Positions 1 to 36,586 of a stretch of 64,000 nt of DNA are shown piece after piece (position 1 is the stretch's first letter; each line of letters opens with the position of its first letter). The DNA comes from an uncultured Flavobacteriales bacterium (GTDB taxonomy: Bacteria > Pseudomonadota > Alphaproteobacteria > UBA8366 > JADFVY01): contig CAYFYY010000001.1 in the NCBI GenBank assembly GCA_964347475.1, positions 6,879-70,878 of the forward strand, given 5' to 3'. The notes below the pieces were generated by a model. It was given only the letters and a program-made list of their open reading frames with translations. It made no database searches and was not told the origin of the DNA. The translations under genes and the position numbers were made by a program.

Positions 1-314
1 GGCACGCGCCCGTCCGTAAAATCGAAGAAGCTCCAGCGGTCGACTTCGAACTCGCCGGTCGAGAACAGCTGCGCCGTGGCTTGCACGGCTTCGAGATGCT
101 GGTTTACGGCATTCTGCACAACCTTGACGTGATGTTCGGCCTCACGATCGAATTCGTGCTGGTCGGCACGTTCCAGATAATACCGCGAGGTGACGTACCC
201 GCCGGCCGAGATCGCCGCGCCCGCCACCAGGACCACAATCACCGGCAGGTGCTCGCGCCACTGCCGGCGCCATCTGACGCGCAAGATGCGATACGTGCGG
301 TGCGAGAATGCCAT
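1..314 (-). CDS. CHASE-type sensor histidine kinase, 5' part only (gene runs off the left edge)
   Basis: Not in the ORF track. My reverse-complement translation from the ATG at 314 gives MAFSHRTYRILRVRWRRQWREHLPVIVVLVAGAAISAGGYVTSRYYLERADQHEFDREAEHHV...VDRWSFFDFT. This aligns with the N-termini of the kinases at 1910-3946 and 6503-8626 (TM helix, then RYY..A.RHEFDR, then RWEF.F). An AGGAAG RBS lies 4-5 nt upstream. Confidence 0.6.
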   Translation of the reverse strand, partial: MAFSHRTYRILRVRWRRQWREHLPVIVVLVAGAAISAGGYVTSRYYLERADQHEFDREAEHHVKVVQNAVNQHLEAVQATAQLFSTGEFEVDRWSFFDFTDGRV

Positions 315-3946: not shown

Positions 3947-4105
3947 TATCCCTTCCGCATCAAGACGATCGCTGCGAATTTCCCGTTTTTCACCCATGCA
4001 CCCGTGCTTGTCTGTGGACCCGTCGGATCGTGGTATGTTTCCAGATCATTTGGGTTTTTTTTGGGCCGTCGGGCTTCGGCGCCTGATCCCCGGAAGAATA
4101 GCATA

Positions 4106-4338: not shown

Positions 4339-6225
4339 TCAGTTCGTGACCAGCGGTCCAACCGCACCCTTGTCCTGGTCGAGCACCGGCACGAGCCAGG
4401 GGTCGGACTCTCTGCTCCGACATGCAACTGCGGGATAGGCGCGCGGATCGGGTGTCTGCGAGCGCACCAGGACATATGTCCGGCACGGCACACCGTCGGG
4501 CCCCTCGAACTCTCCGGTCGCCTTCATGACGAACGCCTCGCCGACCGCGGTGCTTCGCCAGCGGCCCTCGGAGCCGATTTCGCCGTTCTCCAGCATGTCC
4601 TGCACGCGTTGTTCTAGGCCGGCACGCACGGCGGGGGGCCAGTCATGTCCGCCCGGCCGGATCGCCACGAGTTCTATGCGATACGGGCCGTCATCGCCGT
4701 GCAGCAGATCGTCCCGGCGGACATAATGGCGCACGGCCGGCGCGTAGTACCACACACGCGTGTGCCACGCAGCCGGGGGCGGATTGGAGCGCTTGCAGAC
4801 AACGGGAATTGTTTCAAAGACCCCGGCAGCGACCGAGATGCGTTCACCGCCCTTGCGCCGGCAACCCCATGTTTCGGTCGATTTGGTTGCCGTCCCCGGG
4901 GCGTCAGCTGGCGTCCAGAAGACACTGACACCGAACGAAACCGCTTTGCGCCTGGAACTCGGCCAGGCGTCGTCGGCATTCATGTCGACCGTTGCCTCGC
5001 CGCTGCCGGTCGCTGTCTGCCATGCGATGCGTGGCAGAATGAAATTGCGGTGTGTCGTCAGGCTGTCGCCCGCGCGCGTACGCCACCAGACGCGGTCGCT
5101 GCCGACCCGGAGGATCGTCTCCACCCGGCCATCCGAATAGGCGAATGTGTCACTGACCTCGTAAACCGGTTCGAACTCGTCCCGCTGATATCCGATCACG
5201 ACGTCGCCCGGTCCTGCATAGGGGGCATCGCGCGCCGATATCCCGGCCGAGGCGTTCAGGTGTTCGAGCAGGATCAGCGAGACCTTACCGTCAACCGGCA
5301 ATCCGGCCCGCGTCTGGTAGTCCCGGATTGCCGCAGCAGTCTTCCGGCCGGGATATCCGTCCGCCGGACCGGGATCATAGCCGCGCGCCGCCAGCAGCCG
5401 TTGTGCGGACTTTACGGTCTCGCGGGTAAGGTGCTCGACAAGCTCCAGTGACGGCTCGCCGTCGACGTCCAGCCCGGCCCGCCTTTGATATTCCTCGATT
5501 GCGGACTTCGTCTTGCTTCCAGCGAGCCCGTCAATCGTGCCGGCATCATAGCCAAGCACAGCGAGCATCCGCTGCACGGATTTCACCATTTCGCGCAGCA
5601 TATGGTCAGCCAGGGCATCCGTGGCCTCGCCGTCAGCCGGCAGGCCGACCATGGCCTGATATTCGCTGATTGCGGCGCTGGTCTTGCGGCCGGCGAAGCC
5701 GTCGACGGGGCCCGGGTCATATCCGCGCTCGGTCAGCATGCGTTGTACCGTCGCCACCGTCTCGCGTCGAAGATGATTGGCCAGCGCCTGGGTCGCCTCT
5801 CCGTCAACCCTCAGCCGAGCTTGCGCCTGATAGAGCCGGATCGCCCGTGTCGTCTTGTGCCCGGGCAGGCCGTCCGCCGGACCGGGATCGTAACCGCGCG
5901 CCGACAGCGAGAGCTGGATCGCACGCACGGTCTCACGCTTCAGGTGCTCGAACAGGGCGCGCGATGCCTTGCCATCGACCGGCAAACCGGCCCTCTCTTG
6001 ATACGCGCGGATCGCGGCTGTCGTCTCGCTGCCGGCAAACCCGTTTATCTGGCCGACATCGTAGCCGCGAGCGGCGAGCGCGCCCTGTATCGATTTCACG
6101 ACGTCGACCGACTGCTGAGCCAACGCCTCCGTTGCTGGAGCCGTGCCAAAGGCCATCACGCCGGCGGCGAGTACGACAACCGCCAGGCGCGTCAGCCGCG
6201 CCAAGCCACCCTGCTTGCGGGGCAT
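4339..6225 (-). CDS. Secreted protein with five tandem PG_binding_1-like repeats plus the same unassigned C-terminal domain as 563-1840
   Basis: Signal peptide MPRKQGGLARLTRLAVVVLAAGVMAFGTAPATEALA. Five 57-aa repeats of the form xVxxxQxxLxxxGYDPGPxDGxxGxKTxxAIxxYQxxxGLxVDG. The C-terminal domain aligns with 563-1840 (YSDGRVETILRVG..RVWWR, YYAPAVRHYVRR, PCRTYVLVRS..YPAVACRS..PWLVPVLD). The start is uncertain: there is no clear RBS at 6225, and the track ORF extends to 6432. Confidence 0.75.
   Translation of the reverse strand: MPRKQGGLARLTRLAVVVLAAGVMAFGTAPATEALAQQSVDVVKSIQGALAARGYDVGQINGFAGSETTAAIRAYQERAGLPVDGKASRALFEHLKRETVRAIQLSLSARGYDPGPADGLPGHKTTRAIRLYQAQARLRVDGEATQALANHLRRETVATVQRMLTERGYDPGPVDGFAGRKTSAAISEYQAMVGLPADGEATDALADHMLREMVKSVQRMLAVLGYDAGTIDGLAGSKTKSAIEEYQRRAGLDVDGEPSLELVEHLTRETVKSAQRLLAARGYDPGPADGYPGRKTAAAIRDYQTRAGLPVDGKVSLILLEHLNASAGISARDAPYAGPGDVVIGYQRDEFEPVYEVSDTFAYSDGRVETILRVGSDRVWWRTRAGDSLTTHRNFILPRIAWQTATGSGEATVDMNADDAWPSSRRKAVSFGVSVFWTPADAPGTATKSTETWGCRRKGGERISVAAGVFETIPVVCKRSNPPPAAWHTRVWYYAPAVRHYVRRDDLLHGDDGPYRIELVAIRPGGHDWPPAVRAGLEQRVQDMLENGEIGSEGRWRSTAVGEAFVMKATGEFEGPDGVPCRTYVLVRSQTPDPRAYPAVACRSRESDPWLVPVLDQDKGAVGPLVTN
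5248..6108 (-). repeat. Five tandem ~171-nt (57-aa) coding repeats (PG-binding modules) inside 4339-6225
   Basis: Repeat units were read from the translation, each ending in ..HL(K/R/T)RE. Coordinates were derived by counting residues, so they are approximate to a few codons. Confidence 0.8.
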
Positions 6226-6502
6226 GGAGCGGCAGGCGGCGTCGGACCCTGATTCGGTCGGCGGTTCTGTGATTTGTGCATTTTTCAGATCGATATCAAA
6301 CATCCAATAACAACCTGTGATATTCGCTACCCACGCCTGCCGATCACCGGAAGAATACGTGACGCATATGACTCGCTGTCCCCTTTCCCGGTGAAACAAG
6401 ATTCTTTTATTCAATGCAGCGTTAACAAACAAAAAACCTTAGTGCGCCAGCCGACAGTTATTCGCCGCGATATCGCCAAATGATGTACCAACCGTGCCCC
6501 GC

Positions 6503-8626
6503 CTATTCCGCGGCGGCGGCCGTTCTTCGGGAGATCACACGCTCCTTCGGCAAGATGATCTTGACGCTCGTTCCTGCGCCCTCCTTGCTCTTGAGCTCGA
6601 GTTCGCCGTCGTGAAGCTCCACGAGGCTCTTGGTCAGCGGCAGCCCGAGGCCGGTTCCCTCGTATTTCCGTGACAAGGACGAATCGGCCTGGATGAACGG
6701 TTGGAATATCCGCGCCTGATCGCGCTTGGCGATCCCAACTCCGGTGTCCGAAACGGTCGCAACGAGGCGCCCCTTGTAGTCGATCCGCCCGTTGACCACG
6801 ATTCGTCCCCCCGGTTCGGTAAACTTGACCGCATTCGAAAGGAGGTTGACGAAGATCTGCTTCAGGGATCTGGCGTCACCGAACACGACCAGGCACGGAT
6901 GCGCGTATTCGGTCTCGATCGTCACGCCCACGCTTACCGCCTTGTCACGCAACAGGCTAATCGCTTCTTCGACGATCCCGGCGATATCGACCTCCTGCTC
7001 GTCCAGTTCGAATTTCTTGGCCTCCACCTTGGAAAGGTCGAGGATGTTGTTAATCAGACTGAGCAGATGCAGGCCGCTATTGCGGATATCCTGTCCATAT
7101 TCCCGATACCTCTCGCCGACGGGACCGAACAGCTCGTATACGGTCATCTCGGAAAATCCGATGACGGCATTCAGGGGCGTCCGAAGTTCATGGCTGACCA
7201 TGGCCAGGAATTCCGATTTGGCCCGGTTGGCCACTTCCGCCTGTTCCTTGGCAGCGCGCAATTCCCCCTCGACGCGTTTACGCCGGGCGATCTCCTTGCC
7301 AAGCGCAACGTTCGATGCATTCGCCCGAGTCAGCTCCTTGGTACGCTGGACGACGGCGCGCTCGATCAGCAGCTGGCGATTTCGCGTCGCGTTCATGTGC
7401 ACGACCAGCGCCAGGGTCAGCAGGAGACACACCACGCCGAACCCCCAGGGCGCGATACCGGAACCGGAGACCAGTTCGCCAGAAACGGGCTTGACGACGA
7501 TCGACCACTCACGATCGGCGAGTGTGAACCCGGCCGATGTGTAAAATCCTGTCTTGACGCCCGTTTCGTCGATGGACGGGAGGTTCTTTGTGTGCAGTGG
7601 TGACGGCCGATAGTAGAGCAGCCGCTGTCCCTCGGACGCATGCTCGTCGACCAAGAATGTGTCCAGCCAGTCCGGTGTCGTGAACATGGCGAGGGTCGAA
7701 TCGATGATGGCGCCAACATCGAGGAGGCCTGCGGCAAACCCCACAAGCTTCCGACGCCGGTCGGCGAGGCTGAGCGGCGTATTCGAGGTGGTGTACACGG
7801 GCGCAACGACAAGCAACGTCGCCTCCGCGTTGCGTGTCGCATCCTCCGGCGCCACGCGTGCAGTCGTCAGCTTTCCACTGTCGCGCGCCCGTTCCAGAGC
7901 GTTCCTGTAGGCGGGCCGGGAGGCCAGATCGAGACCCAGAAGATCCTCGTTTCCGTCGAAAGGCTCGACGAAATAGACCGGGGCATATTCCGGCCGCGCG
8001 TCAGCCTTCGTCATATTGCCCGTTGCATCGCGCTCGGTAATCCGGAAGTTGAACAAGCCATCGTCATTGGCGGCCTGTTCAAGGTCGGCGCGCTCGGATT
8101 CATAAATCCGCGGCACCCACGCCAGCGCCTGTATGCCGGGGTAGTCGGGGAGCCGCTCCTCGGTGAATTTATAGAATTCCCACCTGTTGACCTGCCCGCC
8201 GAACTCACCGATCAAGGTGGCGACCTCGGACACCGCCCCGACGTACCGGTCCACGGCGGTGCGCGAAACAAGCAGATAGTGCGCCGCCTTCCTGTCGAAC
8301 TCATGCCGGTCGGCCGCCTCGTCGTAATATCGAACGGTCAGAAATGCGGCGACCGAAATCATCACGCCAATGACCAGCACGACCACTTCGGGCGCCCGTG
8401 CGCGGAGCTCTGCCCGCAGTTTCGCGCTCAAGACTTCCCGCAGCGGCGCGGAGCTGAGCCACCATTCCCGCCATGGGACAAACCTGCTCAGAGCCGGGCC
8501 GGTAACTGCAAGTCGCCGCACCGCAGGCGCGGTTGCCTGCAGAAGCCCACCGAGATATGTGGCAACGGTAACAGCGAAATGGTCTATACGCGCAACAACC
8601 CGCCTGAAACGCGGATCACCACCCAT
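6503..8626 (-). CDS. Sensor histidine kinase with a periplasmic CHASE-like domain and no receiver domain (paralogue of 1910-3946)
   Basis: Same architecture and motifs as the paralogue: RWEFYKFTEERL..ALAWVP..YAPVYFVEPFDGNEDLLGLDLAS..ALERARDSGKLT, then MVSHELRTPLNAVIGFSEM, LLSNAVKFT, DTGVGI, GTGLGLPLTKSLVELHDG. An AGGAG RBS precedes the ATG at 8626. Confidence 0.85.
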   Translation of the reverse strand: MGGDPRFRRVVARIDHFAVTVATYLGGLLQATAPAVRRLAVTGPALSRFVPWREWWLSSAPLREVLSAKLRAELRARAPEVVVLVIGVMISVAAFLTVRYYDEAADRHEFDRKAAHYLLVSRTAVDRYVGAVSEVATLIGEFGGQVNRWEFYKFTEERLPDYPGIQALAWVPRIYESERADLEQAANDDGLFNFRITERDATGNMTKADARPEYAPVYFVEPFDGNEDLLGLDLASRPAYRNALERARDSGKLTTARVAPEDATRNAEATLLVVAPVYTTSNTPLSLADRRRKLVGFAAGLLDVGAIIDSTLAMFTTPDWLDTFLVDEHASEGQRLLYYRPSPLHTKNLPSIDETGVKTGFYTSAGFTLADREWSIVVKPVSGELVSGSGIAPWGFGVVCLLLTLALVVHMNATRNRQLLIERAVVQRTKELTRANASNVALGKEIARRKRVEGELRAAKEQAEVANRAKSEFLAMVSHELRTPLNAVIGFSEMTVYELFGPVGERYREYGQDIRNSGLHLLSLINNILDLSKVEAKKFELDEQEVDIAGIVEEAISLLRDKAVSVGVTIETEYAHPCLVVFGDARSLKQIFVNLLSNAVKFTEPGGRIVVNGRIDYKGRLVATVSDTGVGIAKRDQARIFQPFIQADSSLSRKYEGTGLGLPLTKSLVELHDGELELKSKEGAGTSVKIILPKERVISRRTAAAAE

Positions 8627-10742: not shown

Positions 10743-13226
10743 ATGACCGACCACAAACCGCTGCCGGCCGATGAGCTGTTCATGGCGTGCGACCCGTCAC
10801 GCCTGGGATTCAAGACAACGTCCGAGTTGGACCCGTTGGAGGAGCTGATCGGGCAGGACCGGGCGGTGGAGGCGGTGGCGTTCGGGATCGGCATTCGCCG
10901 CGACGGCTTCAACCTGTTCGCCGCGGGCCCGGCGGGTACCGGCAAGCACACGCTCATCGGCGAATTCCTGCAGCGCGAGGCGCGCGCCGGGCCAATCCCC
11001 GACGATTGGTGTTACGTCTATAATTTCGAGGATCCGCGGCGGCCGCAGGCGTTGCAGCTGCCGGCGGGTCGGGCCCATCCCCTCGCCCGCGATATGGAGC
11101 GTCTCACCCAGGACCTGCGGGCCGCACTTCAGGCCACATTCGAAAGCGAAGACTACCGCAATCGCCGCGAAGCGCTGGCGCAGGAATTCAAGAACCGGCA
11201 GGAACATGCGTTCGAAGATATCCAGAAGCGCGCGAAGGAGCACAGCATTGCGCTCGTGCGCACGCCTCTCGGACTCGCGCTGGCACCGCTGCGCGAGGGC
11301 CAGGTGCTCAGCCCGGAAGAGTTCGAGGCCTTGCCAGAGGCAGAGCGGGAGCAGACGAAGTCGGACCTCAAGCAGCTCGAGGAACGGCTCCAGGCGACGC
11401 TGCGGCAGGCGCCACGCTGGGAGCGCGAGCACCGCGACCGCGTGCGCGAGATAAACCGCGAGGTCAGCCGTCTCGCAGTGGACCATTTGATCGATGAGAT
11501 CCGCAAGAAGCACGAAGATCTGCCGGACGTCATAGCGTGGCTGCAGGCGGTCGAGGAAGACGTGGTGGACAAGGCGGAAACGCTGCTCGCGGGGTCTCAG
11601 CAGGCGACCGGCGAGGCGGGCCAGCAGCCGCAGCCCGCACATGCGCCGACGCAGGACGGGGCGATGCGCCATTACACGGTCAACGTCCTGGTGGGCCGAG
11701 ATGCCGATGGCGGCGCCCCCGTCGTGTATGAGGATCATCCGACCTACGGCAATCTTTTGGGCCGCATCGAGCACCGTTCGGAATTTGGCACGCTCGTCAC
11801 CGACTTCACGCTGATCAAGGCCGGCGCCCTCCACCGGGCCAATGGCGGTTTTCTTGTCGTGGATGCCTACAAGCTACTGACCCAGCCGTACAGCTGGGAC
11901 GGACTGAAACGGGTCCTGCGAGCGGGCGAGATCAGCATCGAACCGCTTGGACAGACACTCAGCCTGGTCGATACGGTATCGCTCGATCCGCAACCGATTC
12001 CGCTCGACATCAAGATCGTCCTCGTCGGTGAGCGCATGCTCTATTACCTGCTCTGCGCCTACGACCCCGATTTCAACGAGCTGTTCAAGGTCCAGGCGGA
12101 CTTCGAGGAGGAGATGCCGCGCAACGAGGCCAGTGTCGACCTCTACGCCCGGCTGATCGGCACCATCGTCGGCAATGAGGGGATGCGTCCGTTCGAGGCG
12201 GGCGCCGTCGCCCGCGTGATCGAGCGCGCGGCCCGACTGGCCGGAGACCGAGGGAAACTGACCACCCATATGCGGAGCATCGCCGACCTGCTGCACGAAG
12301 CGGACTACTGGGCCGAGACGGCCGGCCACGAAACCGTCACCGCTGCGGACGTGACGCGAGCCATCGACGCCCATATTCGGCGCTCGGACCGGCTGCGCGA
12401 AAAGATCCAGGAAGCGATCGCCGAGGGCATCGTCCTGATCGACAGCGCCGGGGCCAAGCCGGGCCAGTTGAACGGACTTTCGGTGATGCAGCTGGGCGGA
12501 TTTTCGTTCGGCCGGCCGAGCCGGATCACCGCCCGGGTCAGCATGGGTCGCGGCCGGGTCATCGACATCGAGCGCGAGGTCAAGCTCGGCGGCCCGCTGC
12601 ATTCGAAGGGCGTGCTGATCCTCTCGGGCTTCCTTGCCGACCGCTTCGGGCGCGAACGTCCCCTGGCCCTGGCGGCCAGCCTGGTCTTCGAACAGTCCTA
12701 TGGTGGGGTCGACGGCGACAGCGCCTCGTCGACCGAACTCTATGCGCTGATGTCCGCCCTGTCGGGCGTGCCGGTCAAGCAGGGCTTCGCCGTCACCGGC
12801 TCGGTCAACCAGCGCGGCGAAGTGCAGGCGATCGGCGGCGCCAACGAGAAGATCGAAGGGTTCTTCGATGTCTGCAAGGCGCGCGGGTTGACCGGCGACC
12901 AGGGCGTCCTCATCCCGGCGTCGAATGTCCGACACCTGATGCTACGCGATGACGTGGTCGAGGCCTGCCGCAAGGGCGAATTCGCGATCTACAGCGTCGA
13001 AACAATCGATCAGGGGCTGGAAATCCTGACCGGGGTGCCGGCCGGCGAGCCAGGCAGCGAGGGCATCTATCCGGAGGGTACGATCAACCGTCTCGTCGCC
13101 GACCGTCTGGAAGGCTTCGCCGAGAAAGCGCGCAAGGCCGGGATCGACAGGGATGGCGGCGACAACAAGGGCAACAGCAACAAGGACGGCGACGCGACGT
13201 CCCAGGTCACGCCAGGATCCGGCTGA
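10743..13226 (+). CDS. Lon-like ATP-dependent protease (AAA+ N-terminal part, S16 Lon C-terminal domain; COG1067/LonB-like type)
   Basis: Walker A AAGPAGTGKHTL. C-terminal proteolytic domain GGVDGDSASSTELYALMSALSGVPVKQGFAVTGSVNQRGEVQAIGGANEKIEGFF, with a Ser-Lys dyad context. Confidence 0.8.
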   Translation: MTDHKPLPADELFMACDPSRLGFKTTSELDPLEELIGQDRAVEAVAFGIGIRRDGFNLFAAGPAGTGKHTLIGEFLQREARAGPIPDDWCYVYNFEDPRRPQALQLPAGRAHPLARDMERLTQDLRAALQATFESEDYRNRREALAQEFKNRQEHAFEDIQKRAKEHSIALVRTPLGLALAPLREGQVLSPEEFEALPEAEREQTKSDLKQLEERLQATLRQAPRWEREHRDRVREINREVSRLAVDHLIDEIRKKHEDLPDVIAWLQAVEEDVVDKAETLLAGSQQATGEAGQQPQPAHAPTQDGAMRHYTVNVLVGRDADGGAPVVYEDHPTYGNLLGRIEHRSEFGTLVTDFTLIKAGALHRANGGFLVVDAYKLLTQPYSWDGLKRVLRAGEISIEPLGQTLSLVDTVSLDPQPIPLDIKIVLVGERMLYYLLCAYDPDFNELFKVQADFEEEMPRNEASVDLYARLIGTIVGNEGMRPFEAGAVARVIERAARLAGDRGKLTTHMRSIADLLHEADYWAETAGHETVTAADVTRAIDAHIRRSDRLREKIQEAIAEGIVLIDSAGAKPGQLNGLSVMQLGGFSFGRPSRITARVSMGRGRVIDIEREVKLGGPLHSKGVLILSGFLADRFGRERPLALAASLVFEQSYGGVDGDSASSTELYALMSALSGVPVKQGFAVTGSVNQRGEVQAIGGANEKIEGFFDVCKARGLTGDQGVLIPASNVRHLMLRDDVVEACRKGEFAIYSVETIDQGLEILTGVPAGEPGSEGIYPEGTINRLVADRLEGFAEKARKAGIDRDGGDNKGNSNKDGDATSQVTPGSG

Positions 13227-23467: not shown

Positions 23468-23698
23468 TTACGAATCGAAATCGGAGCAGGCGTCAACGTA
23501 GCTCTGTATCGTGGCCTGCCACTCGGCCGTCGTAAGGTCTTCATCCTGACCGCACATCGGACACGTATGCGCGTCGTTTCCAATCAGCCAGGAAACCGGC
23601 TTCTTCACCTTGTGGCCGCACTGGCGACAGGCGATTTCCGCATCGACCTGATCCATCAACTTGTCCATGTGCGGAGTGTGCGCTTCCGGCGACCGCAT
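23468..23698 (-). CDS. Small Cys-rich (zinc-ribbon-like) hypothetical protein
   Basis: CRQCGH...CPMCG pair of CxxC motifs. Lies 18 nt downstream of the SDR gene and just upstream of the terminator. No convincing RBS, and the start is uncertain. Confidence 0.4.
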   Translation of the reverse strand: MRSPEAHTPHMDKLMDQVDAEIACRQCGHKVKKPVSWLIGNDAHTCPMCGQDEDLTTAEWQATIQSYVDACSDFDS

Positions 23699-23716: not shown

Positions 23717-24463
23717 TCAAATGCAGCGGCCGCCATCGACCTCGAGGCACACACCGGTGAGGAACCGGGCCTCATCGGAACACAGGAAAAGCGCCGAATC
23801 GGCGACGTCCCGTGGTGTGCTGAGACGTCCGAGCGGCACGGTGGATACGAACTGCCGGCGGCGCTCCGGCGTATCTTCGCCTAAGAACAGATGCAGCATG
23901 CCCGTTTCGCCGGCGACCGGATTCAGTGCGCAGACGCGAATCGAGTCCGGCGCAAGTTCCAGCGCCATGGATTTGGTAATCGTGATCACCGCGCCCTTCG
24001 ACCCGTTGTACCAGACGAGCCCCGGGCGCGGGCGCACGCCGGCCGTCGACGCAATGTTCAGGATCACGCCGCCGCCGCGTGCACGAAAGACCGGCACGAC
24101 ATTCCTGGCGGCGTGGTAGAGGGATTTCACGTTGACCGCGAAGATCCGATCGATGTCCTCCTCGCTGACATCCAGCATCGGCCCGTTGCGGTGCGTAAAC
24201 CCCGCATTGTTGACGAGAATGTCGAGCCCACCGAAGGACTCGAGCGTATTCCCGACCGTTCGCGCCATGTCGTCGCCGCGGGTAACATCCGTATGTACGA
24301 ACAGAGCCGAAGTTCCGAGTGAGTCGGCGACAGCCTGGCCGGCGGTCTCATCGATGTCGGCAATCACAACCTTCGCCCCCTCCGCGGCGAACCGGCGTGC
24401 GATTCCTTCCCCGAATCCCGACCCCGCACCTGTGACCACTGCAACTTTTCCGGAAAGCCGCAT
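23717..24463 (-). CDS. Short-chain dehydrogenase/reductase
   Basis: MRLSGKVAVVTGAGSGFGEGIA, NNAG, and YNGSKGA catalytic motif. Confidence 0.85.
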   Translation of the reverse strand: MRLSGKVAVVTGAGSGFGEGIARRFAAEGAKVVIADIDETAGQAVADSLGTSALFVHTDVTRGDDMARTVGNTLESFGGLDILVNNAGFTHRNGPMLDVSEEDIDRIFAVNVKSLYHAARNVVPVFRARGGGVILNIASTAGVRPRPGLVWYNGSKGAVITITKSMALELAPDSIRVCALNPVAGETGMLHLFLGEDTPERRRQFVSTVPLGRLSTPRDVADSALFLCSDEARFLTGVCLEVDGGRCI

Positions 24464-24722
24464 TTTCCTATCCCCACCGAACCGTACAAAATTGCGTACG
24501 ATTTCCCGATCCGCCGCCAGAAAATCGACTCCGTACAACTTATCATTAATGCATCCCGTTCACGATAACACGCCAGCGAACAAAAAGGCTTGAACATGCA
24601 CCACATGCTTCTGCTATCTTCGCGGTGAAGGTTATACAGGCTCGAAAGTGGGATTTTTGAGCCGATTGGGATATCTTCGTGCGACTCCTCGCGGTTCGAA
24701 TTCGCGGAGTGAGAGTTAAGGA

Positions 24723-26159
24723 ATGAGTGGCAGTACCGTATTGCTCGTCGAAGACACGCCCTCTCTGGCGCGCCTGTATAACAAGTATCTCGATGGCGAA
24801 GACCTGGACGTCACTCCCGTTGGCACGGGCAAGGAAGCACTTGCGGCGCTGAACGCGGAACCGCCGTCCGTGGTGCTGCTCGACCTTCGGCTGCCGGACA
24901 TGGACGGCCTGGATATCCTGAAGGAAATCAAGGCGCGTGAGCTGCCGAGCGAAGTCGTGGTGATCACTGCACATGGCTCCATCAACGTCGCCGTCGAGGC
25001 GATGCGCGCCGGCGCCTACGACTTTCTGGTCAAGCCGTTCAACGCCGAACGTCTTCTGGTCACCGTGCGCAACGCCCTTAAGCACCGGTCCCTGTCGGCC
25101 ATCGTCGAGAAGATCAAGGACGTCTCGCGCGACAGCTATTTCGGGTTCATCGGCTCGTCACTGGCAATGCAGGCGGTATACCGCACCGTCGACGCAGCGG
25201 CCGCGTCGAAGGCGACGGTCTTCATCACCGGCGAGTCGGGTACCGGCAAGGAGGTGGCGGCCGAAGCGATCCACCGACAGAGCCCGCGCAAGAACGGCCC
25301 GTTCGTTGCGATCAATTGCGGCGCAATTCCGAAGGATCTGATGGAGTCCGAAATCTTCGGCCATGTGAAGGGCGCCTTCACCGGCGCCCACGCCGATCGT
25401 GACGGGGCGGCCTCCCGCGCGTCGGGCGGTACGCTGTTTCTTGACGAAATCTGTGAGATGGACCTGGCCCTGCAGACCAAGCTGCTACGATTCATCCAGA
25501 CCGGCACGTTCCAGAAAGTGGGCGGCGGGAAGAACGAAAAGGTGGATGTCCGCTTCGTCTGCGCCACCAACCGGGAACCGCTCGCCGAAGTCGAAGCCGG
25601 AAATTTCCGCGAGGACCTGTATTACCGGCTGCATGTGATCCCGGTGCATCTCCCGCCGTTGCGCGATCGGAACGGCGACGTTGTCGAAATCGCGCGGCAT
25701 TTCCTTAGCGCCTACGCCGCCGAGGAGGGCAAGACGTTTGCCAACTTCAGTCCGGAGGCCGAGCAGATCATCGGACAGTTCAACTGGCCCGGTAACATCC
25801 GGCAGCTGCAGAATGTCATCCGTAACATCGTGGTGCTGAACGAGGGCGATACCGTTACCGCGGATATGTTGCCACCGCCGCTCAACCAACTCGGACCGCC
25901 GGCGAAATCGGGCGCTGACGTCCAACAGCCGGCTGAGCGGCCTCAGGTCGCATCGACCGGGGCGACCGCCGCCATTGCCGCCGGCAACGGCGACATCCTG
26001 CCGCTGTGGAAAGTCGAGCGTGATGTCATCGAGCGCGCCATCGAAGCGTGCGACGGCAACATTCCCAAGGCGGCGGCAAAGCTGGGGATTTCGCCGTCGA
26101 CCATCTATCGCAAGAAGTTGAGCTGGGAATCCGAGGAACCCGAGCCCAAGAATACCTGA
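24723..26159 (+). CDS. Sigma-54-dependent response regulator (REC-AAA+-HTH; LuxO/NtrC-like)
   Basis: Receiver VVLLDLRLPDMDG..ITAHGS. AAA+ GESGTGKE. GAFTGA sigma-54 contact loop (VKGAFTGA). C-terminal Fis-type HTH AAKLGISPSTIYRKK. The receiver and linker resemble Vibrio LuxO by eye. Confidence 0.9.
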   Translation: MSGSTVLLVEDTPSLARLYNKYLDGEDLDVTPVGTGKEALAALNAEPPSVVLLDLRLPDMDGLDILKEIKARELPSEVVVITAHGSINVAVEAMRAGAYDFLVKPFNAERLLVTVRNALKHRSLSAIVEKIKDVSRDSYFGFIGSSLAMQAVYRTVDAAAASKATVFITGESGTGKEVAAEAIHRQSPRKNGPFVAINCGAIPKDLMESEIFGHVKGAFTGAHADRDGAASRASGGTLFLDEICEMDLALQTKLLRFIQTGTFQKVGGGKNEKVDVRFVCATNREPLAEVEAGNFREDLYYRLHVIPVHLPPLRDRNGDVVEIARHFLSAYAAEEGKTFANFSPEAEQIIGQFNWPGNIRQLQNVIRNIVVLNEGDTVTADMLPPPLNQLGPPAKSGADVQQPAERPQVASTGATAAIAAGNGDILPLWKVERDVIERAIEACDGNIPKAAAKLGISPSTIYRKKLSWESEEPEPKNT

Positions 26160-26207
26160 CACGTCCATTACCGCGCATGGCGGGTGATACGGCCGAAGAC
26201 GTGCGGC

Positions 26208-28100
26208 TCACTTCGGCGGCGGATACCCGGCCCGGGCATATTCCGACCAGCTTTCAGCGACAAGCTCGGGCACACGATCCAGCAGCTCGGCTGCCAGGTC
26301 GGCGTCATTCACATTGGCCGCCGCCTCCAGACGCTGGACGAGGACCTGCAGGCGCAACGCGCCGAACGTGCCGGAGCTGCTTTTCATGGCGTGCGCTTCC
26401 GCAGCGACGGAATCGAGGTCTCCGCAACGCATGGCCTCCTGCATGCGCAGGATGCGCTCATCAGTCTCGGTCATGAACGATGCGATCAGCTCGTTCACCA
26501 GCGCGGGGCCGGCATCATCCTGCAACTGCCGCAGAACGTCCCTGTCGGCCAGGGTCTCGTCTCTGGGCCCGACCGTTGTGGCCTCGGCGTCCTCGGGCCG
26601 ACCTTCCTCCCCATCGGCGCCGTCCGCATCGGGCGCGCCAACAAGACGGCGGAGCACAGACGACAGGATCCGCCGATCCACAGGTTTCGAGACATGATCA
26701 TCCATGCCGGATTCGAGGCAGAGTTGCCGGTCTTCGGCATTGACATGCGCCGTCATGGCCACGACGGGTATCGAACGTTCTGGTCCGGGCAAGCCTCTGA
26801 TCTGCGCCGTCGCCTCGAAGCCGTCCATTCCGGGCATCCTGATGTCCATCAGGACGAGGCCGTATCGTCCTTCGCGCACGGCGTCGACGGCGCGCTGTCC
26901 GTTTTCCACCGCGTCGCACTCATAACCCATCTTTTTGAGGATCGAAACACCCAGAAGCCGGTTGGTCTGGCTGTCATCAACAAGAAGCACGCGCTGCCCG
27001 CGCGCACCGGCCGGCTCGGCGGCACGCGACGGCACGCTCGCTGGTGCGCTTGGCAACACCTCGGGCGGCGCTGCGCCGAAAACGCCGACGCCGCAATAAC
27101 CGAGAAACACGCCGTCGCCGTCGATTCGGGGAACGCCGCTCAACCGCAGTGTCCGCGTCCGGTCGTGGTCCTGCAAGATGAGTGCAACATCGGTCAATCT
27201 GCGATGTGCGTCCATGTCCTCAAGGCATTGCGACAGGGCGGCATCACCGCCGGCGCCGGCAGGCGACGCAAGTTCCGCAAGGCTGCGTCCAACCATCCAG
27301 TGCAGTTCGTCCCGGTTCAGCTCACTACGGACCGGAACGGCCAGGGAAAACCGATGCAGTACGTCGGTTTCCCATATCCATGCACCTGCGGCCGATATAA
27401 TCAGGCGTGATCGTTCCCGCTCGCCGCTCGCCGCCGCCGCGCGTTCACGCTCGGCCGTTATGTCGGTCGCACTGACGATAAAACCACCGTCCGGCAGTTT
27501 GGCATGATCAAACCGCACCCATGTTCCGCCCTCGAGCTGCCGTTCGCCGACAAGTCGGGTCCCTGCGACGTCAGGTGTCTGCGTACCGGCGGGGGGGCCG
27601 GCCGACTCGTGGTACATGCTGCCGATCGTGATGAGGTCGTCGACGCCGGCGAATATTTCGCGCCAGTGATTGTTGTAGTATGCAAGCCGCGCATCGGCAT
27701 CGTACGCGGCGAGTCCAATCGGTACCGACTCCATCAGGTCGCGCCCGGATTCCGTAGACCATGGCCACGCACTCCCGGCCGCGGTGTCGCGTGACATGAT
27801 GCGGGCCGCGACGAAGGCCAGACCCGCTCCTGCCAGCACCACGCCGCCCAGCCAGAATGCCAGCTCTGGTCGCGAGCCCGCGCCCGCGTCGATCTCAGCG
27901 AACCGAATCAGGAGACCCGCCAGCGCCGCCAGAAACAACACCGCCAATCCAGTGAGCGACAAGAGTCGTGATCTCAAACCACTAGCCCCTGCGATTGCGT
28001 AGGAGGGGACCGCAGTGCAGTCCATCAATCGTGCAGACAATGCTCTCTCCCAATTCGCGCCATGCGTCAAGGGTCGACAGATCGCTTGCCACCATTCCAC
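26208..28100 (-). CDS. Membrane PAS-PAS-REC-HPt phosphorelay protein with no HisKA/HATPase core
   Basis: Two N-terminal TM helices and two PAS-like segments. Receiver RVLLVDDSQTNRLL..LVLMDIRMPGMDGFE..VVAMTAH..KP. C-terminal HPt AAEAHAMKSSSGTFGA. No H-box or G-boxes were seen between PAS2 and REC. Alternative start at 28025. Confidence 0.8.
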   Translation of the reverse strand: MEWWQAICRPLTHGANWERALSARLMDCTAVPSYAIAGASGLRSRLLSLTGLAVLFLAALAGLLIRFAEIDAGAGSRPELAFWLGGVVLAGAGLAFVAARIMSRDTAAGSAWPWSTESGRDLMESVPIGLAAYDADARLAYYNNHWREIFAGVDDLITIGSMYHESAGPPAGTQTPDVAGTRLVGERQLEGGTWVRFDHAKLPDGGFIVSATDITAERERAAAASGERERSRLIISAAGAWIWETDVLHRFSLAVPVRSELNRDELHWMVGRSLAELASPAGAGGDAALSQCLEDMDAHRRLTDVALILQDHDRTRTLRLSGVPRIDGDGVFLGYCGVGVFGAAPPEVLPSAPASVPSRAAEPAGARGQRVLLVDDSQTNRLLGVSILKKMGYECDAVENGQRAVDAVREGRYGLVLMDIRMPGMDGFEATAQIRGLPGPERSIPVVAMTAHVNAEDRQLCLESGMDDHVSKPVDRRILSSVLRRLVGAPDADGADGEEGRPEDAEATTVGPRDETLADRDVLRQLQDDAGPALVNELIASFMTETDERILRMQEAMRCGDLDSVAAEAHAMKSSSGTFGALRLQVLVQRLEAAANVNDADLAAELLDRVPELVAESWSEYARAGYPPPK

Positions 28101-28120: not shown

Positions 28121-28846
28121 ATGATCGTGCTTTTCTCGGATTTTGGTGTGTCCGGACCCTATGTGGGACAGATGCGGACGCGAATTCTGGACGAGGCCCC
28201 CGAAGTTGTCGTCGTCGACCTGATGCACGATGCGCCGCGCTGTGACCCCAGGTCGGCCGCTTACCTGCTTGCGGCGCTGGTCACGCACTTGCCTGCCGGA
28301 TGTGTCTGTGTTGCTGTCGTCGACCCGGGGGTCGGGAGCGATCGGCCACCGCTCATTGTCAGGGCGGATGACCGATATTTTGTTGGGCCGGGCAACGGCT
28401 TGTTCGAGATCCTTGCGCGACGGGCGCATGATATGCGGGCCTGGCGGATCGACTGGCGGCCGGAAAACATGGCCGATACGTTTCACGGACGCGATCTGTT
28501 CGGCCCGGTTGCCGCGAAGCTGGCGCGCAACGAGTTTCCGCAGGCAAGCGAAATCGCATGGCAGAGCCTTGCGACGGCATGGCCCGACGATCTGCCGGAA
28601 GCGATATATCTGGACAGCTTCGGGAACGTCATGAGTGGCCTGCGCGCGTCGCCGCTGGGCGACGTGGCACGGGTCGCCGCCGGCGGGCGAGATTTGCAGC
28701 GCCGCCGAACGTTCGCCGATGTCGCGCCCGGTGAGGCTTTCTGGTACCAGAACGCCATCGGCCTCGTTGAAATCGCCGTCAACCGCGGCAGTGCGGCCGA
28801 CGTGCTGGGGCTGAAGCTGGGCGATCCGGTGACCCCCGTTCCTTGA
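28121..28846 (+). CDS. SAM hydroxide adenosyltransferase family protein (DUF62, chlorinase/fluorinase-like fold)
   Basis: N-terminus MIVLFSDFGVSGPYVGQMRTRIL, and later DSFGNV, both typical of this family. Confidence 0.7.
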   Translation: MIVLFSDFGVSGPYVGQMRTRILDEAPEVVVVDLMHDAPRCDPRSAAYLLAALVTHLPAGCVCVAVVDPGVGSDRPPLIVRADDRYFVGPGNGLFEILARRAHDMRAWRIDWRPENMADTFHGRDLFGPVAAKLARNEFPQASEIAWQSLATAWPDDLPEAIYLDSFGNVMSGLRASPLGDVARVAAGGRDLQRRRTFADVAPGEAFWYQNAIGLVEIAVNRGSAADVLGLKLGDPVTPVP

Positions 28847-28864
28847 CCAAGGGAGATCCGATCC

Positions 28865-29791
28865 ATGGAGCGTGGCGCGCACGCATTCGTCGATGATCCC
28901 CGCAACGAGACGGTCCTGGTCTATGTGAATGGCGCACTGGTGCCACGGGCCGAAGCGGTGGTCTCGGTCTTCGACAGCGGTTTCCTCATGGGCGACGGCG
29001 TATGGGAAGGTATGCGGTTGCACAACGGGCGGATTGCCTTTCTGGACCGGCATCTTGCCCGGCTGTACGAGGGAGCGAAGGCGATCGATCTCGACATCGG
29101 CATGGACCCGGAGGAAATGTCCCGGGTATTGCACGACACCGTCGGTGCGAACGGCATGGAATCCGGTGTGCACATTCGCCTGATGGTCACGCGGGGCCTC
29201 AAGTCCACGCCATACCAGAGCCCGAAAGTGAATGTCGGCGGGGCGACGGTGGTCGTCATCGCGGAACACAAGACGGCCGATGAAGCGGTGGCCGCTCGGG
29301 GCGTGACATTGTTTACAGTACATGTGCGGCGCGGCGCGCCGGACGTCCTCGACCCCAAGCTCAACATGCACTCCAAACTCAATTGCATCACGGCGGCGAT
29401 TCAGGCCGACAAGGCGGGCGCCGACGAAGCCCTGATGCTCGACCCGCACGGCTTTGTCGCCACCTGCAACTCGACGAACTTCTTCATCGTCCGGCGCGGC
29501 CAGCTGTGGACGTCGACCGGTCGCTACTGCATGAACGGCATCACCCGGGCAAACGTTCTGGCGCTTGCGAAACAGGACGGCATCCCCGCGGAAGAGCGGG
29601 ACATTTCGCTAACCGAGGTCTACAGTGCCGAAGAGGCTTTCGTGACCGGTACGTTCGGGGGGCTGACGCCGGTGCGGGAAATTGATGGCCGATCCATCGG
29701 CGACGACGTGCCCGGCCCGGTCACCCGCCGGCTGACCGAATTGTATCGCGAGCTGATCGCGCGCGAATGCCCGCCCCCCCCGCGGGCCTGA
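28865..29791 (+). CDS. Class IV (branched-chain/D-amino-acid) aminotransferase
   Basis: GDGVWEGMR, a K in the HSKLN context, and EAFVTGTFGGLTPVREIDGR. Confidence 0.8.
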   Translation: MERGAHAFVDDPRNETVLVYVNGALVPRAEAVVSVFDSGFLMGDGVWEGMRLHNGRIAFLDRHLARLYEGAKAIDLDIGMDPEEMSRVLHDTVGANGMESGVHIRLMVTRGLKSTPYQSPKVNVGGATVVVIAEHKTADEAVAARGVTLFTVHVRRGAPDVLDPKLNMHSKLNCITAAIQADKAGADEALMLDPHGFVATCNSTNFFIVRRGQLWTSTGRYCMNGITRANVLALAKQDGIPAEERDISLTEVYSAEEAFVTGTFGGLTPVREIDGRSIGDDVPGPVTRRLTELYRELIARECPPPPRA

Positions 29792-29796
29792 GGGAC

Positions 29797-30528
29797 ATGG
29801 CGACAACGCGGATCGCAATGTGGTCGGGACCGCGCAATGTCTCGACAGCGCTGCTGCGCTCATGGGGCAACCGGCCGGATACCGCGGTCTGGGACGAGCC
29901 GCTGTACGCGCATTACCTGACGCAGCGCACGCCGGACCACCCCGGGATCGAAGAGGTCATCGCCAGCCACGAGACGGACTGGCGCCGGGTGGTCGCCAGC
30001 ATGCTGGGGCCCGTTCCGGGCGGCCGCGCCATCTTCTACCAGAAGCACATGGCGCATCACATGCTGCCCCATATCGACGACAGCTGGCTGGCCAGGCTGG
30101 ACAATGCCTTCCTCATCCGCGATCCGGCAGAGGTCCTGCTGTCGATGTCCAAGACGATGCAGACCGTCACCTTGCAGGATACGGGTTTTCCCGATCAAAT
30201 CCGCCTGTTCGAACGGGTGCGGGATCTTACCGGCACGATCCCGCCGGTGATCGACGCGCGAGACATCGGCACCGATGCAGAGGGAACGTTACGGGTGCTG
30301 TGCGCGGTGCTGTCTGTACCGTTCGACTCGGCCATGCTGTCATGGCCACCGGGCCCGCGGCCGACCGACGGTGTGTGGGGCAAATACTGGTATGCCGGCG
30401 TCAACGCGTCCACCGGCTTCCGGCCGTGGAAGGCCCGTGCCGAAGCGCTGCCGGAGCGCGTCAGACCGCTTCTCGACGAACTGGTGGGACTTTATGACGC
30501 GCTGGGTCGGCACCGGCTGCGCCCCTGA
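29797..30528 (+). CDS. Sulfotransferase-like P-loop protein (uncharacterised family)
   Basis: The N-terminal MWSGPRNVSTAL resembles the sulfotransferase 5'-phosphosulfate-binding loop. The rest is unassigned. Family call is tentative. Confidence 0.45.
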   Translation: MATTRIAMWSGPRNVSTALLRSWGNRPDTAVWDEPLYAHYLTQRTPDHPGIEEVIASHETDWRRVVASMLGPVPGGRAIFYQKHMAHHMLPHIDDSWLARLDNAFLIRDPAEVLLSMSKTMQTVTLQDTGFPDQIRLFERVRDLTGTIPPVIDARDIGTDAEGTLRVLCAVLSVPFDSAMLSWPPGPRPTDGVWGKYWYAGVNASTGFRPWKARAEALPERVRPLLDELVGLYDALGRHRLRP

Positions 30529-34450: not shown

Positions 34451-36586
34451 ATGACCGGGCCCGACACGAATCAGCAGTACGACCAGTGGGTCGATCGCTG
34501 CCGGCAGCAGCTTGAACGAGGTGCCGCCGGCAATGCGCTTGCCGCGTGGATGCAGTCGGAGGGGGTGAGCGCGGACATGGCCGCCGCCATCCTCGAAGCG
34601 GCACGGGGCGGGGCTACCTTGGCGGCGGATGCGCGGGATGACGGAGACGCCGAAGCCGCGCCGCCACAAGCCACGCCCGCGCAACCAGCAACGGACCCCG
34701 CGGCCACCACCGCGGCCATCGCGAGTGATGCGGCCCAACCCGGCGCAGGCGAGTCCACCGATCACCCTGGGCCTCCCGCGCCGAACAAACAGGCACCGCC
34801 CCCCGCCCGCACTGCAACGACGTTTGCCAGGGCCTTCGGCAGGCCGGACGCAGCGGGCAGCCACGATCCTGGACCCCCGTCGGAAGACATCGCGGAACAG
34901 CAATCCGAGCCGGCGGATTCGGCGCCACCAGCCGGCACGGAGGTGAGCCCGATCGCACCGCAGGCGCCTGTGCAACCTGCGCCGTCGACGCCACCGACGA
35001 CGACTGGCGCAGGCGCAACCCCCGTCGCGTCCGAGCCCGCGGATCAAGTGCCACCATCGCAGACCGGACCGATGATTTCGGCGGATGGTCCCCCGGGTCA
35101 GGACGTGCCGGCCGAAGAGGTCACAGACGGCCTTGGCGGAACGTCCACTCCCGAGTCGGCAGACGAGCCCGTCGGTGAGGCGGTTCAAGTCCCTGAAAGC
35201 CGGACTGCCGGGTCGGCCCTGCCATCGAACCTGTTCGGCACGCCGCGACCGCCGATCACATTCGCCGATGCGCCGGCGCCGGGGACGCAGCGTGACGGCG
35301 AACAATTGGCGGCACCGCATGCACACACAGGCCAGCCGGGCGGGGACGCGGAGGAACAAGCCGAGTTGCATGAAGAGGCAGAAGCGTCGCACGACGAGGG
35401 CGTCGGGAGCGAGTCGAGTCGCCAGCCCGGTTCCGAGACGACGGCGCCGGAGCCGGACCCGGGCGATGCTACCGAACTTGGGGCGGATGACGCACTGGTG
35501 CCCGAGGCGGCCGATCACCGTCATGCGGACACTGGCGAGCCCGACCCGTGGCGGCGGGACGATGTTGGATTACTGGCGGAGCATCCTGTTCCGCCGGCCG
35601 ATCCCGTCGACGCGCAGATCGCCGAACACGAGGCCACAGAACCCGTTGATGCCGCCCAAGACACTGACGAACTGCCGACAATGGCGGAACAACCAGCCGT
35701 GGCGCAGGCGCCCGATTCGTCCCTGGACGAGGCGGGCGTCGACGACGGCATGTCCGAGGCAGCTGCCCCCGACGAGCCTGTGCGGTTCGACGACTCCCTG
35801 GAGGAAGCGGCGTCACGAATGGGTGCGGACCTGCGTCGCAGCGCTCCGGCCGCCCCGTCGGAATCCTACGAGGACTTCATAAAGGCAGAGCAAGAGCGCA
35901 CGCCGCGACCGGCAGAAATCGCCGGTGCCGAAAGCTCTGCCGATGGTTGCGATGAATCCAGCGCCGAGCTGGAGCGGAGCCCCGCCAAGCCCCGCCAGAC
36001 ATCGGCGAAAGAACGCAAATTCGGCCGGCGCAGCGCCAAGATCGCGACGGCCGAGACAGCGGACGGCGGCAATGAGACGATGCCGGCGGAGGGCAGTCGG
36101 GACGGTGACGGGGCAGAGCCGGCGACCCCCGCTTCTTCGGGTGAACTCGGCGGCGAACTGGCGCGGGCAATTCGCGAGGCCGCGCAGGACAGCGCCGAGG
36201 AGCCCGAAGCCCCGCCACTGCCGGCTGAGCCAAAGACCGAGGAGCAACTTGCGGCGGCAGCGAAACAGCTGGGGATCAGCTTCCGGGACGATCCAGAGCG
36301 CCCCCGCTCCGGCGACGTCGACGAGGACGAAGACGATACGACCCGCGCCGCACGCGAGATGGGCATCAGTTTCCGGGACGACCCGGCCGTCACGCGCGAA
36401 CCGGATCCTGAAGACGAAAGCACGAAGGCGGCGCGGGAACTCGGGATCAGCTTTCGCGACGCCGCAGAGGTGAAGCGTGAGCAAAAGAGCATGTTGCGGC
36501 GGTACTGGCCGATCGTTCTCCTCATGGTACTCGCCGCGATCGCCATGCCGATTGCCGCCACGCTGCTGCTGTTCTCCGGCGATTAG
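34451..36586 (+). CDS. Large acidic, Pro/Ala-rich, low-complexity protein with a single C-terminal TM anchor (hypothetical)
   Basis: High GC3 in this frame. Ordered-looking N-terminus MTGPDTNQQYDQWVDRCRQQLERG. Three copies of (L/M)GISFRD near the C-terminus, then RYWPIVLLMVLAAIAMPIAATLLLF. The antisense ORFs are Arg-rich shadows. Confidence 0.55.
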   Translation: MTGPDTNQQYDQWVDRCRQQLERGAAGNALAAWMQSEGVSADMAAAILEAARGGATLAADARDDGDAEAAPPQATPAQPATDPAATTAAIASDAAQPGAGESTDHPGPPAPNKQAPPPARTATTFARAFGRPDAAGSHDPGPPSEDIAEQQSEPADSAPPAGTEVSPIAPQAPVQPAPSTPPTTTGAGATPVASEPADQVPPSQTGPMISADGPPGQDVPAEEVTDGLGGTSTPESADEPVGEAVQVPESRTAGSALPSNLFGTPRPPITFADAPAPGTQRDGEQLAAPHAHTGQPGGDAEEQAELHEEAEASHDEGVGSESSRQPGSETTAPEPDPGDATELGADDALVPEAADHRHADTGEPDPWRRDDVGLLAEHPVPPADPVDAQIAEHEATEPVDAAQDTDELPTMAEQPAVAQAPDSSLDEAGVDDGMSEAAAPDEPVRFDDSLEEAASRMGADLRRSAPAAPSESYEDFIKAEQERTPRPAEIAGAESSADGCDESSAELERSPAKPRQTSAKERKFGRRSAKIATAETADGGNETMPAEGSRDGDGAEPATPASSGELGGELARAIREAAQDSAEEPEAPPLPAEPKTEEQLAAAAKQLGISFRDDPERPRSGDVDEDEDDTTRAAREMGISFRDDPAVTREPDPEDESTKAARELGISFRDAAEVKREQKSMLRRYWPIVLLMVLAAIAMPIAATLLLFSGD

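Follow-up and report, generated by a model that had tools for sequence, protein, structure and literature searches.

The stretch of DNA analyzed here, a 64-kb window (64,000 nucleotides) on contig CAYFYY010000001.1 whose numbering is used for all coordinates, contains at 24723-28100 a pair of genes, one encoding a LuxO-like sigma-54 activator and the other a membrane protein that carries a histidine phosphotransfer (HPt) domain and has no kinase core. The two open reading frames (ORFs) are convergent, with the activator gene (478 aa) on the plus strand at 24723-26159 and the HPt-bearing gene on the minus strand at 26208-28100. Pfam assigns Response_reg, Sigma54_activat, AAA_lid_14, and HTH_8 domains to the activator, which is thus composed of a receiver (REC) domain at residues 6-115 with D54, an AAA+ domain at 143-308, an AAA lid, and a Fis-type HTH at 428-464, and D54, the Walker A motif GESGTGKE, and the GAFTGA loop are all intact. 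On the NCBIfam models, LuxO is by far the best family, with 691.1 bits for NF041946 (LuxO_transreg_Vib) versus 433 for NtrC, the former being under the 800 bits required by the equivalog cutoff of that model. The nearest solved structure is that of Photobacterium angustum LuxO (5EP0, 507 bits, with NtrC1 at 333 bits), to which the activator is approximately 60% identical over REC and AAA+ (residues 5-387). This agrees with an earlier note on this DNA, which had described a LuxO-like REC-AAA+-HTH activator with an intact GAFTGA loop. Azospirillum and further alphaproteobacteria commonly encode LuxO-like proteins with about 65% identity, some of which have been named 'repressor protein LuxO' in the JGI annotation.

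The HPt-bearing gene has a maximal ORF of 630 aa, in which Pfam recognizes a PAS_7/PAS_4 domain at approximately residues 120-220, a weak second PAS at 269-338, Response_reg at 371-481 (E 1.4e-27), and Hpt at 537-616 (E 5e-13). The earlier note had seen transmembrane (TM) helices, two PAS domains, a receiver, and an HPt without a kinase core, and had proposed a profile check for HisKA and HATPase_c; when run on the 630-aa ORF this check gave no Pfam match to either domain even at E≤1, and the architecture was borne out by two further approaches. First, a regular-expression scan of the ORF found no H-box, G1 box, or G2 box, and the same scan was positive in two related full-length kinases discussed below (from loci L090 and L092), which carry SHE[IL]RTP, DTGIGI, and GTGLGL. 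Second, an AlphaFold2 (AF2) model built on 23 orthologues (mean pLDDT 67, with 85-95 in REC and HPt) shows a TM hairpin at residues 44-106 followed by a pair of PAS-like alpha/beta units, the receiver, and an HPt of four helices, and neither a dimerization and histidine phosphotransfer (DHp) hairpin nor an ATP-lid domain was seen in it. The best Foldseek matches of the model are the receiver domains of GacS, PA1611, and Sln1. A cryptic kinase core within 26208-28100 is ruled out by the Pfam, AF2, Foldseek, and motif results.

From the N-terminus, the protein (all features on the minus strand) begins with a membrane-anchoring hairpin at residues ~44-106 (27783-27971), in which two hydrophobic helices (44-71 and 77-106 in the AF2 model, coinciding with hydropathy peaks) are connected through about 6-12 loop residues, leaving no periplasmic domain. 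PAS1, of the PAS_7/PAS_4 type, occupies residues ~117-213 (27462-27752; AF2 pLDDT ~80) and aligns with the first PAS of the L092 kinase, and PAS2, which is PAS_3-like, occupies residues ~230-342 (27075-27413) and was delimited by the 23-orthologue alignment, a weak Pfam match, and its motif WIWETD (241-246), the counterpart of WLWETD in L092. The receiver at residues 371-481 (26658-26990) contains D375, D376, the phospho-acceptor D419, T450, and K472, and the four-helix HPt bundle at residues 520-623 (26232-26543; AF2 pLDDT ~90) contains H570 in HAMKSSSGTFGA, within the motif HAMKSSSG. The best PDB matches of the receiver are receivers of hybrid or unorthodox kinases, including GacS D1 and PA1611. 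The PA1611 receiver (7C1J) is the best solved-structure match by sequence, and the HPt matches the companion entry 7C1I, which we take to be HptB and which the tool labels 'Histidine kinase'. The true start of the gene is probably TTG 28040, giving 610 aa and preceded by the Shine-Dalgarno sequence GGGAGAG, and not GTG 28100, which is only 20 bp from the ATG of the divergent SAM_HAT gene; in public gene calls the protein has 577 or 610 aa. A 408-aa ORF antisense to the gene (26184-27410, plus strand) has a high GC content at third codon positions (GC3) but no further support, and is a typical GC-rich shadow ORF that crude GC3-based calling picked over the real gene.

A search of 5.8 billion proteins returned approximately 32 full-length orthologues (cluster representatives) of 545-630 aa and 40-92% identity, all of which have the PAS-REC-HPt architecture and are devoid of the kinase core. 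They come from metagenome-assembled genomes or metagenomes, those that are named being 'Rhodospirillales bacterium', and the matches beyond them are hybrid kinases that align over the REC-HPt part only. By these alignments, the kinase-less proteins are taken to form a small conserved family. In the 23-orthologue alignment, D375, D376, D419, T450, K472, H570, K573, and G580 are invariant, as is the PAS2 motif WIWETD. Since the phospho-sites are unchanged at 40-92% identity, they point to purifying selection on phosphotransfer, which argues against a pseudogene.

We compared 12 luxO loci, including that of the window, and defined the slot of the HPt-bearing gene as the position convergent with luxO and divergent from SAM_HAT, a gene of the SAM hydroxide adenosyltransferase family that lies at 28121-28846 on the plus strand in the window. 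An HPt-bearing gene is adjacent to and convergent with luxO in 11 of the 12 (window counted), and what it encodes differs from lineage to lineage. The slot contains PAS-PAS-REC-HPt in the seven loci of the window clade (again counting the window), a REC-HPt protein of 270 aa in L087 (A. thermophilum), an HPt-only protein of 125 aa in L088, and full unorthodox kinases in two loci, L090 from Azospirillum halopraeferens (PAS-PAS-(PAS)-HisKA-HATPase_c-REC-HPt, 996 aa) and L092 (PAS-PAS-PAS-HisKA-HATPase-REC-HPt, 1262 aa); in L091 it is empty. The architectures in L087, L088, and L092 are backed by Pfam rescans, and that in L090 by a domain listing and kinase motifs. The divergent SAM_HAT gene is found in all HPt-carrying luxO loci examined (L081-L090 and L092), whatever the architecture in the slot. 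Six loci of the orthologue clade share a block made up of Sulfotransfer_5, Aminotran_4, and SAM_HAT genes, the PAS-REC-HPt gene convergent with the luxO-like gene, a short-chain dehydrogenase (SDR) gene, and a Zn-ribbon ORF. The outer flanks of this block differ among the orthologue-clade loci, and in close relatives the neighborhood as a whole is syntenic.

A comparison of the window protein with the L092 kinase by BLASTP gives two colinear blocks. In the first, residues 79-338 correspond to 179-456 of the kinase and span TM2, the juxtamembrane region, PAS1, and PAS2 (29% identity, E 3e-23), with WIWETD paired with WLWETD; in the second, residues 346-625 correspond to 976-1245 and span REC and HPt (42% identity, E 1e-55). 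The stretch of the kinase between them, residues 457-975, contains a third PAS_7, the H-box SHEIRTP, and the G1 and G2 boxes, and it is represented in the window protein by approximately eight residues. The junction, at residues ~338-346 (27063-27089, minus strand), is therefore where about 520 aa of the L092 kinase have no counterpart. The form found in the window clade is most likely the product of an internal deletion that removed the third PAS, HisKA, and HATPase_c. Survival of the core as a neighboring gene after fission was considered and rejected, as identity between the L092 core and the CHASE2-PAS-histidine kinase adjacent to the block in L089 amounts to only 30%.

The direction of change is suggested by the other occupants of the slot. 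The catalytic cores of the L090 and L092 kinases are 53% identical, which argues that they are orthologous and that the full kinase is older than the split between these two lineages. Neighbor-joining trees of the LuxO and HPt domains have identical topologies, in which the window clade is monophyletic, L090 with its full kinase is sister to L087 with REC-HPt, and L092 with its full kinase is sister to L088 with HPt only. With this topology, parsimony favors a full unorthodox kinase as the ancestral occupant of the slot and at least three independent truncations. The REC-HPt module of the window protein is orthologous to that of the full kinases in the same slot, and the proposed orthology with the full kinase rests on the slot, the colinearity, and the REC-HPt orthology taken jointly. 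This history also bears on the design that the earlier note had described, a receiver fused to HPt and to PAS sensors. As an architecture it stands, but its origin was misjudged, as the slot and the two colinear blocks make it most likely the remnant of an unorthodox kinase and not a LuxU to which a receiver and PAS sensors were added. The suggestion that the PAS domains bring an extra input to the middle step was not borne out either, since their colinearity with L092 indicates inherited sensor parts.

Within the window protein, residues 368-610 are colinear with ArcB 525-753, BarA 667-903, and TorS 697-948 (106-116 bits), and transfer from Asp to His is established for the REC-HPt halves of these three kinases, so that by homology we infer the same Asp to His to LuxO-like route here. 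Between the genes, pairing of HPt with luxO is retained across approximately 35% HPt divergence, and judging by the congruent trees, HPt and LuxO are co-diverging. The HPt of the window is 45% identical to the stand-alone HPt of L088 (E 6e-19), whose best PDB match is LuxU of V. harveyi (1Y6D, E 1.5e-8), and the REC-HPt region aligns with the L087 protein at 38% identity (E 7e-42).

Based on these comparisons we put forward a mechanism that we consider somewhat better than evenly probable, in which the HPt-bearing protein is a conserved descendant, deleted for the kinase core, of the cognate unorthodox kinase of LuxO and acts as a reversible phosphotransfer hub that is fed in trans. Specifically, the internal deletion in this Rhodospirillales clade would have placed the receiver and HPt right after the membrane anchor and PAS1-PAS2, giving a product incapable of autophosphorylation. 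As the transmitter is gone, D419 needs to be phosphorylated in trans, and this would be done by one or more histidine kinases encoded elsewhere (step 1). The phosphoryl group would move from D419 to H570 of the HPt (step 2) and from H570 to D54 of the LuxO-like protein, thereby switching its sigma-54-dependent ATPase and transcription activity (step 3). The same route should be reversible and so able to drain phosphorylated LuxO (LuxO~P; step 4), and the retained PAS domains would probably gate or scaffold the transfer (step 5).

Several observations weigh against this mechanism. What is shown here are the phospho-sites and their conservation, from which we infer each phosphotransfer step and the way it runs, the part played by the PAS domains, and the kinase that acts as donor. 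The match of the window HPt to LuxU (1Y6D) is weak (E 0.08), making the connection to LuxU a transitive one via L088, and the two genes are convergent, which makes their co-transcription impossible. The LuxO tree is only midpoint-rooted, and the choice between loss and gain in the window clade rests on colinearity and parsimony. The PAS1-PAS2 tandem (PAS_7 with PAS_3) is common in long sensors, with 2620 matches at E≤1e-3 in an exhaustive search; by PAS sequence alone L092 is not the nearest relative, the 29% N-terminal similarity is not unique, and the PAS match to L090 is weak. Finally, a sigma-54 regulon of the LuxO-like activator was not found within the 64-kb window.

Among the alternatives, an unlikely one, to which we would nevertheless give some weight, is that the protein works mainly in reverse, stripping LuxO~P by transfer from the LuxO aspartate to H570, to D419, and to inorganic phosphate at a rate set by the PAS domains, with LuxO receiving its phosphate from another kinase or, via the HPt, from a hybrid kinase. 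The domains that have been kept are just those needed by the reverse path, and kinase cores were lost repeatedly with the HPt always retained. Moreover, reverse phosphotransfer via REC-HPt modules is established for ArcB and for the Vibrio Lux kinases, with the phosphatase mode of ArcB and of LuxN/LuxQ as textbook precedents. On the other hand, phosphate would still have to enter the system, and within the window luxO has no other kinase as a partner. A weak objection is that the residues at D+2 (R/W) and T+2 (H) resemble those of slowly hydrolyzing relay receivers such as Spo0F and not those of sinks.

The earlier note had gone further and traced a relay from kinase His to REC Asp, HPt His, and LuxO-like Asp, with three CHASE kinases of the window, all said to be receiver-less, as candidate donors. 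Pfam and a tblastn search of the window with kinase, CHASE, receiver, and HPt segments identified two complete CHASE-HisKA-HATPase_c kinases on the minus strand, at 1910-3997 and 6503-8626, both of which have no receiver and whose cores are 62% identical to each other. The third is only an N-terminal fragment (3-179, minus strand, by tblastn) that runs off the window, so that its receiver status is unreadable. In the segment 1-8626 (minus strand) the CHASE proteins alternate with PG_binding_1 proteins, the order being the fragment ending at 179, 563-1894, 1910-3997, 4339-6432 (five repeats by Pfam, between the two kinases), and 6503-8626. In a distant genome of 7.3 Mb (L093, 6001-9192) the kinase and a PG_binding_1 protein again come one after the other, and no response regulator lies close to them. 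The CHASE kinase and PG-binding pair looks like an independent, conserved, orphan two-gene module, one that possibly senses a peptidoglycan-related signal.

That these kinases donate to D419 is rather unlikely in our view. They are the only kinases in the window, and the only two receivers found there by tblastn both belong to the luxO/HPt pair. Compared with the L092 core that is missing from the window protein, the two kinases reach 42% and 39% identity in their own cores, slightly more than a genuine hybrid kinase (37%) and more than the L089 CHASE2 kinase (30%), and the best family matches of their transmitters include the hybrid types HrmK, TorS, BarA, and LuxQ, so that they would be biochemically plausible donors. 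Against this, the same transmitters also rank DivJ and PdhS, users of stand-alone receivers, among their top matches; the kinases belong to a receiver-less family of more than 1100 members that extends well beyond the clade of the approximately 32 PAS-REC-HPt proteins; their module recurs in the distant genome with no luxO nearby; and they lie 16 kb away, with none of the related loci having them within its 10-kb flanks. All 120 of their nearest homologues, down to 41% identity, have no receiver, and on this ground we reject the idea that the kinases are hybrids that lost one. The CHASE kinases thus have no specific support as donors, given the size of their receiver-less family and the PG-binding module of their own. 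It is the second half of the relay traced in the earlier note, from REC through HPt to LuxO, that is well supported by conserved sites, gene pairing, and congruent trees.

We consider quite unlikely a wiring closer to that in Vibrio, in which hybrid kinases phosphorylate H570 directly from their own receivers and the internal receiver is a competitor, a regulator, or a vestige. Such kinases do occur near related loci. In one subclade the genes flanking the block encode a REC-PAS-PAS-HisKA-HATPase-REC hybrid kinase and a receiver-less CHASE2-PAS-PAS_7 kinase (L085 9011-11434; L089 4102-6525 and 13819-16431), which are candidate relay inputs in those genomes, neither being present in the window, and a HAMP-histidine kinase-REC-REC protein lies beside the HPt-only form in L088, a form that must operate in this way. 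Nevertheless, the 64-kb window contains no hybrid kinase, and the five catalytic residues of the receiver are invariant at 40-92% identity, which speaks against a vestige.

A further possibility, one we regard as doubtful, is that the protein represents a new class of PAS-gated, membrane-anchored hub and not an intermediate of decay, feeding the LuxO circuit with input gathered from orphan kinases that have no receiver, for example those of the CHASE/PG-binding module, in which case synthesis or processing of the signal might fall to the SAM_HAT, aminotransferase, sulfotransferase-like, and SDR genes. The least probable reading of all, that the gene is a dead remnant of a broken kinase kept near luxO by inherited synteny alone, would fit an origin by loss of the catalytic core and the wholly syntenic neighborhood in close relatives, but we reject it on conservation, as more than 30 orthologues, some with as little as 40% identity, have an unbroken ORF in which the phospho-sites and the PAS2 motif do not vary, the core block is retained where the outer flanks differ, and HPt and LuxO diverge together.

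The regulatory sequences around the pair do not reproduce a Vibrio circuit. In an alignment of six orthologous intergenic regions upstream of luxO, the invariant columns cluster at 24590-24619 (plus strand) and form a sigma-70-like promoter, TTGAAC-N18-CTATCT; this conserved core was considered as a small RNA and that candidate was rejected in favor of the promoter. Neither a sigma-54 promoter nor a Qrr-like gene was found in the 260-bp intergenic region upstream of luxO. Across the whole window, an Rfam scan at gathering thresholds found no family, Qrr included, and ARAGORN found no tRNA and no tmRNA. Sigma-54 promoter matches in the window numbered 77 versus 67.7 ± 8.6 in shuffled sequence, which is no excess (a weighted scan gave a similar result), and none was in the intergenic regions flanking luxO. 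The Vibrio LuxO box TTGCA-N3-TGCAA occurs twice in the window versus 1.07 expected, in neither case in an intergenic region near the locus, and no intrinsic terminator was found between the convergent genes. Full-text literature searches turned up nothing on LuxO circuits from alphaproteobacteria or on the present family of REC-HPt proteins.

Of the surrounding genes, SAM_HAT marks the slot, its functional tie to the signaling pair being unproven, and in the window clade it is followed by Aminotran_4 and Sulfotransfer_5 genes (28121-30528 in the window, plus strand, for the three). On the other side, the SDR gene (23717-24463, minus strand, by Pfam) is divergent from luxO and is kept in the window clade, L088, and L092; that it is functionally tied to luxO is likewise unproven. 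Downstream of it lies a small Zn-ribbon-like ORF with two CxxC pairs (66-76 aa; 23468-23698, minus strand), and a gene of 66-68 aa is at the equivalent place in L082, L083, L085, L086, and L089. Both Azospirillum loci have a cold-shock-domain gene between luxO and the HPt-bearing gene (L087 9672-9884; L090 7722-7931) that is absent in the window clade. A gene for a LonC/LonB-like AAA+ protease is near luxO both in the window (10743-13226, plus strand) and in L092 (1-1487), and together with UDG, LMWPc, APH, LigT, and Bax1-I genes it reveals that synteny between the lineages with the kinase-less form and those with the full kinase extends over a long range. Farther away on the plus strand are a 711-aa ORF (34451-36586) with no Pfam match at E≤0.001, at whose position genes of 707 aa in L082 and 529 aa in L081 are found, also without Pfam matches, and a protein of 677 aa (53986-56019) that consists almost wholly of Sel1 repeats, with 15 matched stretches (519 bits).

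The pair can be compared with several known systems. It resembles the LuxN/LuxQ/CqsS-LuxU-LuxO relay of Vibrio in having a close LuxO homologue with an HPt-bearing gene beside it, in that the HPt-only form in L088 best matches LuxU, and in the His-Asp-His-Asp route ending on a sigma-54 activator that we propose. In contrast to the Vibrio relay, the HPt shares one polypeptide with a receiver, two PAS domains, and a membrane anchor, so that the protein has 610-630 aa where LuxU-type proteins are single domains of about 115 aa; the genes converge instead of forming a luxOU operon; the activator does not reach the cutoff of 800 on the LuxO model; the window yielded no Qrr, LuxO box near the locus, autoinducer synthase, or hybrid kinase; and the host is a high-GC Rhodospirillales-like alphaproteobacterium. 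With the unorthodox kinases ArcB, BarA/GacS, TorS, EvgS, and BvgS it shares a colinear REC-HPt, and its L090 and L092 orthologues have exactly their architecture. Unlike them, it is without HisKA and HATPase_c and its first phosphorylation must be in trans. A kinase-less membrane carrier of HPt that derives from a kinase has a precedent in E. coli RcsD (YojN), an inner-membrane protein with a C-terminal HPt that does not autophosphorylate and passes phosphate from RcsC to the regulator. RcsD retains a degenerate kinase-like domain and has no receiver, whereas the window protein shows a clean deletion of the core and keeps the receiver and two PAS domains.

Multistep relays that end on a receiver-bearing sigma-54 activator are known in alphaproteobacteria from ShkA-ShpA-TacA of Caulobacter, which differs in that the receiver is on a hybrid kinase, the HPt stands alone, and TacA is not known to be a LuxO orthologue. 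In the HptB network of P. aeruginosa (PA1611, ErcS', and SagS) several kinases converge on one HPt, and the window receiver matches that of PA1611, but HptB is a stand-alone protein and feeds an anti-anti-sigma pathway instead of a sigma-54 activator. The logic that we propose, from receiver-less kinases to a separate receiver, a histidine phosphotransferase, and a final regulator, is that of Spo0F-Spo0B in Bacillus, except that those are separate soluble proteins and Spo0B does not have the HPt fold, whereas here receiver and HPt are fused and membrane-anchored. It should be noted that no new signaling chemistry is revealed by the locus, and its parts are of known kinds, namely the unorthodox kinase, the LuxU-LuxO relay, and the RcsD-like HPt carrier.

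Close LuxO homologues paired with an HPt gene are widespread in the Rhodospirillales and Azospirillum. The retained PAS domains raise the question of whether phosphotransfer itself, and not autophosphorylation, is regulated by PAS. The one locus presents a natural series that goes from a full kinase to PAS-PAS-REC-HPt, REC-HPt, and a LuxU-like stand-alone HPt, and it thereby offers a testable case of how branched phosphorelays and LuxU-like HPt proteins may originate, by repeated loss of the kinase core with the HPt that serves the regulator, with or without its receiver, being kept.

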